Both the position numbers and the translations under genes were made by a program. Shown piece by piece: positions 39,212-41,149 of a stretch of 64,000 nt of DNA. The stretch is taken from the sequence record OX638288. One strand, 5' to 3'. The notes beneath the pieces were generated by a model. The model was not told where the DNA came from and ran no database searches. It was given only the letters and a program-made list of their open reading frames with translations. Source of the DNA: Escherichia phage UP19. Numbering within the stretch: the first letter of the stretch is position 1; the number at the start of each line of letters is the position of its first letter.

Positions 39212-39684
39212 ATATTAAATTCGGACAAATTATCCCTAAAGGTTATGCAATTGAAATTGAAACCTGGGAAAATGATGGCGATAACTATAAAACCCAGACT
39301 GTATTTGGCGTAGAAGAACATGAAATCCAACAGTACAAATATATCCTAGAACTTTTCCATGGTTCTCATTGCAACAACCCGGATAAATGTGGTAATTCGG
39401 AATGGGACGTAGTTAAGCATCTGGTTATTGCCCACATTGAATCGGGTGTAAAATCAGGCCAGTTGACCCCTGAATTTTTAGATAAGGCCCTCGGTATCCA
39501 AGACTTAGAAGCCTTGCTGAATGACGACGAGGAAGAATACTACTTGAATGAAGCCCTTACTGAGCTCCTTGGTATGGCTTGTGAATATGATGGTGATTTC
39601 ATCCGTGTAATTTCTTACGTTAAGCTGTATATTATTGAAGAAGAAATTAAAATCCCTGATGTGAAAGCACTTGATATGCTTTAA
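39199..39684 (+). CDS. Hypothetical acidic protein
   Basis: 161-aa ORF overlapping the upstream gene end. Confidence 0.5.
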   Translation: MATMNIKFGQIIPKGYAIEIETWENDGDNYKTQTVFGVEEHEIQQYKYILELFHGSHCNNPDKCGNSEWDVVKHLVIAHIESGVKSGQLTPEFLDKALGIQDLEALLNDDEEEYYLNEALTELLGMACEYDGDFIRVISYVKLYIIEEEIKIPDVKALDML

Positions 39685-39807
39685 GAATTATGTGATATTA
39701 TTACTCTATCATTAATACCCTCTATTACCAAAGGTTCTTCCCTCAAAGAGCCTTTCATAATAGACAAGGTCTATTAATCAAACTTACTTTACTTAATTTT
39801 ATTTGAG

Positions 39808-40080
39808 GTGTTTATGTTAGTATTAAAATTAGCTTTTTATGACCCAGAAACCAAGACAACAACTACTAAACGTTGTTCTATTTCATATGAATGCCAATTT
39901 GGCGAAGTTGAGACCGACGGCGAGCCCTTTATGGCAATTGCCGATAGCACATTCGCTAAACCAAAAATAATTCCACTAGTTAATGCTGCGGCTTATCTGG
40001 TTGCTCCTGAAGAAATGACTTATCATACAATTCAGCACATGGCTAAAGATGATAATGCTCCTGCTGGATTTGTAATTTAA
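39808..40080 (+). CDS. Hypothetical protein
   Basis: 90-aa ORF ending just before the tRNA cluster. Confidence 0.4.
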   Translation: MFMLVLKLAFYDPETKTTTTKRCSISYECQFGEVETDGEPFMAIADSTFAKPKIIPLVNAAAYLVAPEEMTYHTIQHMAKDDNAPAGFVI

Positions 40081-40085
40081 ATTAA

Positions 40086-40159
40086 GGCCCTGTAGCTGGA
40101 CGGTCAAGCGAGCGACTCATAATCGCTGGATGGTGGTTCGATTCCACCCAGGGCCACCA
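40086..40159 (+). tRNA. tRNA with CAT anticodon (Met, or Ile if the first anticodon base is modified)
   Basis: Perfect 7-bp acceptor GGCCCTG/CAGGGCC; anticodon loop CTCATAA; T-arm GGTGG-TTCGATT-CCACC; encoded CCA. Confidence 0.8.
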
Positions 40160-40163
40160 ATTT

Positions 40164-40238
40164 GGATGTGTAGCTCAGCGGTAGAGCAGTTGACTGTTAA
40201 TCAATTGGTCCATGGTTCGAATCCATGCATGTCCGCCA
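40164..40238 (+). tRNA. tRNA-Asn (GTT)
   Basis: D-stem GCTC/GAGC; anticodon loop CTGTTAA; T-loop TTCGAAT; encoded CCA. Confidence 0.8.
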
Positions 40239-40242
40239 AATA

Positions 40243-40318
40243 CGAGGCATAGCTCAGAAGGAAGAGCAACGGTCTTCTAAACCGTAGGTCGTAGGTTCGA
40301 TCCCTACTGTCTCGACCA
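40243..40318 (+). tRNA. tRNA-Arg (TCT)
   Basis: Acceptor CGAGGCA/TGTCTCG; anticodon loop CTTCTAA; T-loop TTCGATC; encoded CCA. Confidence 0.8.
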
Positions 40319-40319
40319 A

Positions 40320-40490
40320 ACAAGAAACCGGGTCGCTACCGGTAAGTCGTCGGACTGAAGCTCCCTGAATAAGACCCGACTTTAAGGCGTACATGAGTTG
40401 ACCTCTTAAAGTCCCTTATCTCACAGCTGAAACGGCGCACAGAACACTTGCCTAGCAGGTGGAACCCCGACAAGGTTACCCTAGGTTAAA
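40320..40490 (+). ncRNA. Putative small stable RNA downstream of the tRNAs (T4 has small stable RNAs in its tRNA cluster)
   Basis: About 170 nt with no ORF, between the last tRNA and a strong terminator; GC-richer and palindrome-rich. Confidence 0.3.
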
Positions 40491-40518
40491 GGCCCTTCCG
40501 AAAGGTTGGGCCTTTTTT
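40491..40518 (+). terminator. Intrinsic terminator (copy 1 of a duplicated cassette)
   Basis: GGCCCTTCC-GAAA-GGTTGGGCC followed by TTTTTT. Confidence 0.7.
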
Positions 40519-40519
40519 G

Positions 40520-40527
40520 TATAAATA
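40520..40527 (+). promoter_or_regulatory. Late promoter TATAAATA
   Basis: Immediately after the terminator, 27 bp before the ATG at 40554. Confidence 0.55.
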
Positions 40528-40553: not shown

Positions 40554-41108
40554 ATGAAACTTTTAAAATATTTGAGTTGGATTCTGTTGGTCCCACTAGA
40601 TTTTATCTCTATGGTTCTAGCCGTTATCCTTGCGCCTTTTGTGGTTCCTTTTCATAATAAAAAGACTGGTAAATTGCCATACGGTTTTGATTGGATGATG
40701 ACATACGATAATCCAATTGACGGCGATAAAGGTCATATTAAACGTTGGGCTAAAATCAGGAAAATGCCTGGTGGTGTTTATCTCCAGAGAGTAGCTTGGC
40801 TATGGCGAAATAAAGCTTATAACTTTGCTTATCATAAACTAGGCCGTGATTGTAGCTCGGAATTCCATTATCGTGGTAATCCTGACGTAGAATCAGGTTC
40901 TCCTGATAAAGCTCACCATGGTTGGTTGTGGATGTGGAATGATGACGCCTGGGGTGTATTTGCTTCAGTTCCTTATCTTAAGGTCGGCGGAATCACATTT
41001 TACCTTCGCGTGTACTGTGGCTGGAAGCTTAAGAGTCTTTTGTCTCGTAAAATCCCTAAAGCTATGTTGGCCTTCCACGTGAACCCGTTCCGGTTCTACA
41101 AGAACTGA
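40554..41108 (+). CDS. Membrane-anchored hypothetical protein
   Basis: 184 aa; N-terminal transmembrane helix; flanked by identical terminator and late-promoter cassettes. Confidence 0.5.
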   Translation: MKLLKYLSWILLVPLDFISMVLAVILAPFVVPFHNKKTGKLPYGFDWMMTYDNPIDGDKGHIKRWAKIRKMPGGVYLQRVAWLWRNKAYNFAYHKLGRDCSSEFHYRGNPDVESGSPDKAHHGWLWMWNDDAWGVFASVPYLKVGGITFYLRVYCGWKLKSLLSRKIPKAMLAFHVNPFRFYKN

Positions 41109-41113
41109 TTTAC

Positions 41114-41140
41114 GGCCCTTCCGAAAGGTTGGGCCTTTTT
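41114..41140 (+). terminator. Intrinsic terminator (copy 2 of the cassette)
   Basis: Same GGCCCTTCCGAAAGGTTGGGCC plus T-run as at 40491. Confidence 0.7.
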
Positions 41141-41141
41141 G

Positions 41142-41149
41142 TATAAATA
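41142..41149 (+). promoter_or_regulatory. Late promoter TATAAATA
   Basis: Follows terminator copy 2; 29 bp before the ATG at 41178. Confidence 0.55.

Follow-up and report, generated by a model that had tools for sequence, protein, structure and literature searches.

Three tRNA genes of the phage DNA analyzed here, all with an encoded CCA, are followed on the same strand by a candidate structured RNA gene, a conserved trailer, and an intrinsic terminator (Table 1). To judge from its sequence, the window, by which we mean the whole 64-kb stretch of DNA that was analyzed, stems from a JS98-like Dhakavirus, a relative of T4. In a 5-kb neighborhood, it is 93-99% identical to the JS98-type phages IME281, JS98, EcWhh-1, MN04, and JS10, and JS98 itself is classified as a Dhakavirus within the Tevenvirinae, Straboviridae. 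In the RefSeq record of JS98, three tRNAs are annotated and no feature follows until the next CDS.

Table 1. Features of the tRNA region and of the downstream segment, and apex types of the RNA family.
Feature	Position	Strand	Basis or remarks
Putative MotA-type middle promoter (TGCTTTA, 12-nt spacer, TATTAT)	39677-39701	+	predicted from pattern
tRNA-Met(CAU), tRNA-Asn(GUU), tRNA-Arg(UCU)	40086-40318	+	ARAGORN; Rfam tRNA model, 62.6-71 bits
Probable rnaD ortholog (T4 'species 2' stable RNA), ~122 nt	40320-40441	+	ends set by homology to annotated T4 gene
P1 5' hairpin, ACCGG-GUCGCUA-CCGGU	40327-40343	+	MFE fold; covariation
P2 5' strand, GUCGUCG	40346-40352	+	pairs with 40433-40437 and 40439-40440; C40438 bulged
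Purine-rich internal loop, 5' side, GACUGA	40353-40358	+	opposite GAAA 40429-40432
P3 5' strand, AGCU	40359-40362	+	pairs with 40425-40428
CCCUG of the (U)UCCCUG motif	40363-40367	+	opposite (A/C)UCAC(AG) 40419-40426
P4 (40366-40373 with 40415-40423) around apical hairpin 40374-40414, 'type A'	40366-40423	+	covariation
Conserved 3' trailer: H1 40445-40461, H2 40463-40477, H3 40478-40486	40442-40487	+	hand pairing and comparison
Intrinsic terminator, interrupted 8+2-bp stem, GAAA loop, six U	40488-40518	+	-17.8 kcal/mol
Apex type A			window, JS98, L007
Apex type B			T4, RB69, most others
Apex type C			L006, L011, UPEC01

A sequence-only reading of the segment between the tRNA genes and the end of the terminator (40320-40518) had described it as free of ORFs, richer in GC than its surroundings, palindromic, and closed by a strong terminator, and this description is correct on all counts. 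Nothing above 46 aa touches the segment on either strand, and what is there are only mechanical ORFs; over 200 nt, the absence of ORFs is by itself weak evidence. The GC content of positions 40300 to 40499 is 0.52, compared to 0.30-0.43 in the coding flanks, and that of the tRNA genes is about 0.50. Besides the P1 hairpin, there are inverted repeats at 40378-40386/40405-40413, 40476-40489, and 40488-40495/40508-40515, and the terminator hairpin itself spans positions 40488 to 40512 and is followed by six U. As such descriptive features alone are no proof of a gene, it is not the lack of ORFs, the GC content, the palindromes, or the terminator that lifts the segment beyond chance; homology and covariation carry the case.

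We regard positions 40320 to 40441 as very probably the Dhakavirus ortholog of T4 rnaD, that is, as a structured RNA gene of the rnaD family. Positions 40323 to 40440 align with positions 1501 to 1615 of the T4 locus (89 of 120 positions identical, E = 6e-18) and thereby cover the T4 rnaD gene (NC_000866, 71053-71171) from end to end. The first 36 nt are identical and the last ~20 nt nearly so, whereas the center has diverged. The terminal helix and the internal loops are common to both RNAs, and so is the genomic position. In T4, tRNA-Arg (1422-1496) is followed by rnaD (1498-1616, 119 nt), rnaC (139 nt), and ~80 nt to the terminator; in the window, rnaD starts two positions after the last nucleotide of tRNA-Arg(UCU), on the same strand and with the operon terminator downstream. 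The GenBank record of T4 describes rnaD as a 'small, stable RNA; species 2 RNA' and rnaC as 'species 1 RNA'. The two rnaD genes differ in the apical third, which is unrelated in sequence (type A in the window versus the T4 type) but a hairpin in both, and in the last base, which is C in T4 and A in the window. They also differ in that rnaC follows in T4 and not in the window.

The proposal in the sequence-only reading that the segment encodes a small stable RNA corresponding to rnaC or rnaD of T4 is therefore supported for rnaD by the full-gene alignment and has to be dropped for rnaC, for which a local blastn search with the T4 gene returned only chance matches of at most 19 nt in the segment and in the whole window. 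A covariance-model search had been suggested there as a check, along with the comparisons to T4. With model R1, built from an alignment (A1) of 27 distinct homologs, there was a single match in the window (40319-40441, 117.1 bits, E = 1.9e-27), the next best reaching 8.8 bits, and no further rnaD copy was found in the window with the filters switched off. In Rfam searches of the window, T4, and eight related loci, only tRNAs passed the gathering thresholds, and even at E values up to 10 nothing but tRNAs was matched, with no family for rnaD or rnaC. Using blastn, the segment matched 742 of 50,697 phage records, and the annotated features beneath the matches were rnaC and rnaD (T4, RB9, Aplg8). 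An rnaD homolog is present in 734 phage records. The 202-nt segment was matched whole at ≥90% identity in ~37 of the 742 records, a rough guide to how many phages have the rnaD-only arrangement; among the matches listed, those in a single piece lie within or just under this identity band. In JS98, too, rnaD is unannotated. The Dhakavirus rnaD is thus an unannotated addition to a known RNA family, and its identification is routine and no surprise to a specialist.

For the structural comparison, 30 distinct homologs were gathered from IMG/VR, metagenomes, and GenBank phages, 27 of which were aligned in A1. One of the 13 loci obtained from IMG/VR with an 18-mer scan was a chance match (L014), and 7 of the 18 loci obtained from metagenomes with a two-part pattern were GC-rich coding false positives. 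The RNAalifold consensus of A1 is a 5' hairpin (P1) next to a long interrupted stem, which comprises the 7-bp P2, the purine-rich loop, the short P3, a second loop, P4, and the apical hairpin. The pairing of P2 secures the 3' terminus within a helix beside P1. When 40320-40441 was folded by itself, the plus strand gave z = -1.99 in comparison to shuffles, with the MFE structure accounting for 32% of the ensemble, and the minus strand was no better than shuffles (z = +0.37).

That the secondary structure is kept by compensatory substitutions on the plus strand is supported by several aspects of the alignments. In A1, 94.2% of the cells are paired, compared to 32-50% when the partners are slid by one to three columns, and 10 of the 31 pairs changed on both sides. 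Double-sided cells numbered 46, with 16.2 in shuffles, and none of 500 shuffles reached the covariation score. When distant members from Moonvirus, Kanagawavirus, Marfavirus, and Karamvirus were added (alignment A2), 17 of the 31 pairs varied on both sides, including the inner P2 pair and all of P1, a count that supports rather than proves the structure, as A2 is model-fitted and leans towards the model. The closing pair of P1 is A-U, G-U, or G-C in close relatives, and with the distant members added, each of the five P1 pairs varies in both of its strands. Of 14 divergent members, 5 have C-G in place of G-C as the innermost pair of P2. The first pair of P3 is U-A in 16, A-U in 8, and U-U in 3 of the 27 sequences, and distant members show changes in P3 from U-G to U-A or A-U. 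In P4, the covarying pairs are G-C/A-U, U-A/G-C, and A-U/U-A. Among the 27 close homologs, the purine-rich loop is at least 90% conserved, and the most widely kept unpaired elements are (U)UCCCUG and (A/C)UCAC, with UCCCUG found from Tequatrovirus to Karamvirus, Kanagawavirus, and Marfavirus.

The purine-rich loop, with GACU-GA opposite GA-AA between the G-C-rich P2 and the covarying P3, is reminiscent of kink-turns and other loops with tandem sheared G-A pairs, and its sequence pattern is partly compatible with a kink-turn (a 4 x 2 loop plus GA/GA). The loop could form tandem G-A pairs beside a bulge, which is a resemblance only: unlike in kink-turns, there are two extra A residues on the non-bulged strand, and the loop is replaced by pairs in several lineages.

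The length of ~170 nt suggested for the RNA in the sequence-only reading needs to be corrected, as ~122 nt constitute the RNA gene and the following positions up to 40487 belong to a separately conserved trailer. Over positions 40436 to 40520, the identity with the T4 sequence that lies downstream of rnaC amounts to 82%, and the alignment skips rnaC exactly. In L031 and L036, both bases of a pair in H1 of the trailer have changed, from G-C to A-U. The helices H1 to H3 were assigned by hand pairing and comparison, and the isolated RNAfold MFE of 40442-40519 pairs the trailer otherwise. Across genera, the trailer is better conserved than the rnaD apex, with covariation in H1. Together, trailer and terminator would give an RNA of ~75 nt with an sRNA-like 3' end. 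The terminator hairpin has a z-score of -4.35, which none of 200 shuffles equaled, and it was missed by a simple terminator scan because of two U-U mismatches in its stem. In its stem, a pair that is G-C in some phages is C-G in others, and the alignment indicates homology to the T4 terminator that follows species I RNA (PMC2330249).

Two side aspects concern the terminator. A 32-nt direct repeat, 94% identical between 40486-40527 and 41109-41149, consists of the terminator hairpin and, immediately following, the late-promoter motif TATAAATA. Its copies flank an ORF at 40554-41108 (184 aa; RB43 ORF080w-like in JS98), and the repeat resembles the border of a terminator/late-promoter cassette, where a gene has been inserted or may be swapped. 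In the Gaprivervirus UPEC01 (L041) and two related contigs (L003, L032), two tandem hairpins that resemble each other, AGCGGGCGGUGCGCCCGGUA and AGCGGAUGGUGCAUCCGGUA, stand in place of the usual trailer and terminator, with TATAAATA after them.

Divergent rnaD members were reached via rnaC matches in other genera. They include the Citrobacter Moonvirus phages NM4.3, Moon, and Merlin, the Kanagawavirus phages PEi20, Kosakonia 305, KLB31, CIP9, and ZX14, the Klebsiella phage Marfa, and a Karamvirus, and most of them score 16-42 bits with R1. In such divergent members, P1 is wholly different in sequence but still a hairpin (e.g., CCAUGA-GACG-UCAUGG), or it is expanded. With these, the T4-like phages known to carry rnaD represent at least eight genera, of which seven belong to the Tevenvirinae. 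The RNA does not depend on tRNA-Arg, since in L005, L006, L013, and RB69 it comes directly after the stop codon of an ORF, is located after an ORF in Merlin, and follows tRNA-His in Moonvirus NM4.3 and two Kanagawavirus phages. The purine-rich loop is kept in Tequatrovirus, Mosigvirus, Dhakavirus, most Gaprivervirus phages, and Marfa. Watson-Crick pairs take its place in UPEC01 (L041 597-710; GCCUG/CAGGC) and Moonvirus NM4.3 (L043 738-837; AUCU/AGAU), as do base pairs with one mismatch in Moon and Kanagawavirus (among L044 and L046-L051), and these replacements weaken the case for an indispensable binding site.

Conservation is distributed very unevenly along rnaD. The scaffold has a mean pairwise identity of 0.93, and the apical third has a mean of 0.62 and a minimum of 0.22. 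There are at least three apex types that cannot be aligned with each other, and every type folds as a hairpin. As the apex type varies without regard to the P3 pair type or to whether rnaC is present, the 120-nt rnaD gene is a recombination mosaic. This mosaicism fits the homing-endonuclease traffic documented for the tRNA region of T4, in which SegB drives the co-conversion of flanking sequence (PMC2330249). The preferred target of SegB is the gene for tRNA-Asn in phages that lack segB (PMC2330249). The tRNA-Asn gene of the window carries GGTTCGAATCC, the conserved core of the SegB recognition site, at 40213-40223, and no segB is annotated in the homologous region of JS98; during mixed infection, the tRNA region of the window may serve as a gene-conversion target.

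Some further structured elements were seen along the way. The apices of Moonvirus, Marfavirus, and Karamvirus contain another conserved motif, UCCCUCAYUGAAAC, which is an echo of the basal UCCCUG and CUGAAAC. A mini-rnaD paralog of ~70 nt lies between a T4-type tRNA-Arg and a full rnaD in L010 (322-393) and also in L009 and L011. It consists of the 5' hairpin GACUAU-UAU-AUAGUC, an AAG linker, a CCGUCG/CGGCG helix, and a GGACUGA motif, lacks the long stem, folds with z = -2.4, and is unannotated in 27 phage records (WG01, QL01, AnYang, KIT01, and others); the window contains none. The tRNA clusters of Moonvirus and Karamvirus contain a structured, non-tRNA spacer of ~110 nt between the Gln and His genes (L043 541-655, L042 835-947), with a closing helix of 15-17 bp that is unlike in sequence between the two phages (z = -4.0 and -3.2). 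A ~60-nt spacer between Asn and Gln (L043 402-470) is closed by GCGGUGG/CCACCGC, and neither of these spacers has an Rfam family.

Like rnaD, rnaC (species 1) is a small stable RNA embedded in Tevenvirinae tRNA clusters. The spread of the two RNAs is similar, with 748 phage records for rnaC and 734 for rnaD, and rnaC is 95-99% conserved in most records. A T-arm (GGTTCGAATCC) and an acceptor-like stem are features of rnaC. In Moonvirus and Karamvirus, rnaC is located between other tRNAs, apart from rnaD, and the two RNAs therefore move independently. The gene arrangements provide evidence that rnaD would function without rnaC and without an adjoining tRNA.

In T4, a single precursor of ~1.75 kb comprises the tRNA cluster and the species I and II RNAs; it begins at a middle promoter that lies just upstream of the tRNA genes and ends beyond species I RNA (PMC2330249). 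An RNA-seq study of T4 with Northern validation, for which the described probe was directed against RNAC, placed RNAC and RNAD among the late RNAs (PMC9697503). In the window, TGCTTTA-N11-13-TANNNT occurs 6 times, with 1.05 occurrences expected, and no late promoter TATAAATA was found on the plus strand between 34044 and 40520. By analogy to T4, a polycistronic precursor would probably begin at the MotA-type promoter listed in Table 1, with rnaD as its tail, and a single transcript would start at ~39708, comprise the orf at 39808-40080, the three tRNAs, and rnaD, and end with the terminator at 40518. Host nucleases involved in the maturation of tRNA-Arg would release the 5' end of rnaD with a cut in the A-rich spacer after CCA, and the 3' end would result from a cut in the single-stranded AGAACAC spacer and trimming back to P2. 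P1 and P2 would then clamp both termini, and the resulting rod of ~122 nt would resist exonucleases and accumulate.

The accumulation as a discrete stable RNA of ~120 nt is expected for the phage of the window by transfer from T4, and the predicted mature ends in the window are placed by homology alone. As rnaC is missing downstream, the formation of the rnaD 3' end in the window is independent of the processing of a downstream tRNA-like RNA. Without rnaC in this position, the 3' end may differ from that in T4, and rnaD could also remain joined to the trailer as a species of ~200 nt. In being small, rod-like, and highly paired, rnaD resembles the 4.5S RNA of E. coli and the C4 antisense RNA of P1/P7 (PMC11143913), and the release from a longer precursor by host tRNA-processing nucleases, presumed for rnaD, would be a further likeness; there is no sequence or Rfam similarity between these families and rnaD.

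Several other explanations of the locus need to be weighed. The element could serve only in cis: as a folded spacer or as a 3' trailer, it would steer or insulate the processing of the tRNA precursor, shield this precursor from 3' exonucleases, and be functionless once released. This would agree with the observation that rnaD always shares the strand of the tRNAs and lies within a tRNA cluster or at its border, with the existence of other structured spacers (~60-115 nt) between tRNAs in Moonvirus and Karamvirus clusters, and with the fact that 50 years have brought no trans function to light (PMC3014915). However, a mere spacer would not need the sequence conservation of the unpaired UCCCUG, AUCAC, and GACUGA/GAAA elements, and rnaD is kept where no tRNA precedes it. 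In addition, the T4 record calls rnaD a small, stable RNA, and its transcripts were detected in T4 infection (PMC9697503). We therefore consider a function exclusively in cis to be unlikely. A base-pairing regulatory sRNA, which would bind mRNAs of the host or the phage through its conserved single-stranded motifs or through the variable loop at its apex, is a little less probable still. The conserved unpaired pyrimidine motif UUCCCUG (UCCCUCA in Moon-type apices) would be suited for pairing, target specificity could reside in the variable apex, and the architecture of trailer plus terminator is like that of 3'-derived sRNAs. On the other hand, when 5,426 complete E. coli genomes were searched by blastn with the 202-nt segment, neither similarity nor an extended antisense match was found at the sensitivity of this method. 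Apex types that are unrelated in sequence would furthermore imply different targets in close phages, and most of rnaD is locked in helices.

Three more readings were rejected, as each fails specific tests. The location in a tRNA cluster and the P1 hairpin (5 bp, 7-nt loop), which has the 8-mer AACCGGGU in common with the T-arm region of rnaC, might suggest a degenerate tRNA or tRNA-like decoy, as rnaC with its T-arm and acceptor-like stem appears to be. This is very improbable, as neither ARAGORN nor the Rfam tRNA clan (CL00001) matched anything in 40320-40441 at E values up to 10 and there is no cloverleaf, and as P1 precedes the terminal helix, in a strand polarity opposite to that of a T-arm/acceptor stack, and has no T-loop consensus in its loop. 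A hammerhead-like self-cleaving ribozyme comes to mind with T4-type sequences, in which CUGAUG and GAAA surround a stem and GGACUGAUG and CAGAAAC flank the long stem, but stem I and a three-way junction are missing, the window reads CUGAAGC, Moonvirus and Kanagawavirus lack the motif, and no Rfam ribozyme was matched at E values up to 10, so that we give this idea practically no credence. The same holds for a small protein encoded on either strand. There are mechanical ORFs of 45-46 aa on the minus strand, and annotated CDSs overlap the homologs in many records, but the homologs are 114-123 nt long with length differences that are not multiples of three, the central third has been exchanged for unrelated sequence, and the substitutions compensate one another so that RNA pairing is kept, in part through G-U pairs, which are possible only on the plus strand. 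The 'hypothetical protein' CDSs that lie over or inside rnaD or rnaC homologs in many records (L043 749-844, L040 687-809, L036 682-810) are, in view of the RNA-level covariation, probably annotation artefacts.

Deletions in the tRNA region of T4 are viable on laboratory hosts. The function of RNAC and RNAD is reported as unknown (PMC9697503; PMC3014915). A possible role, which we propose tentatively and with clearly less than even confidence, is that rnaD binds proteins or serves as a decoy RNA in trans, with its loops as recognition surface and its apex as host-specific module. The recognition surface would be formed by the conserved loops GACUGA/GAAA and UCCCUG/AUCAC, and the interchangeable apical hairpin would adjust the effect to particular hosts. 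A more specific version, in which rnaD is a modular decoy that titrates a host factor or counters a host defence, with the scaffold as a handle and a hypervariable, recombining apex as the host-specific part, must be regarded as doubtful. If true, it would explain the shuffling of apices between otherwise similar phages, the missing phenotype on laboratory strains, and a single rnaD nucleotide change during adaptation to a semi-permissive E. coli isolate (PMC12685909), and the mini-rnaD paralog of 27 phages would be a second member of such a family. In the latter study, the T4-like phage BW-1 was adapted to ECOR34, and the one SNP common to three lines was inside rnaD (PMC12685909). By the loose coordinates of that paper (PMC12685909), the SNP would lie roughly 41-45 nt from the rnaD 3' end, in the apical part, and it could be a pre-existing variant.

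As rnaD has been without a known function for ~50 years and is without an Rfam family, the comparative picture is of more use than the identification of one further ortholog. It provides a constraint map, in which P1, P2, P3, UCCCUG/AUCAC, and GACUGA/GAAA are constrained and the apex is free, and it indicates that probably spurious 'hypothetical protein' CDSs have been placed over rnaD in many GenBank records. The value of the finding is modest: the comparative model, with a structure that is backed by covariation, turns the question of what rnaD does in T4-like phages into defined experiments.
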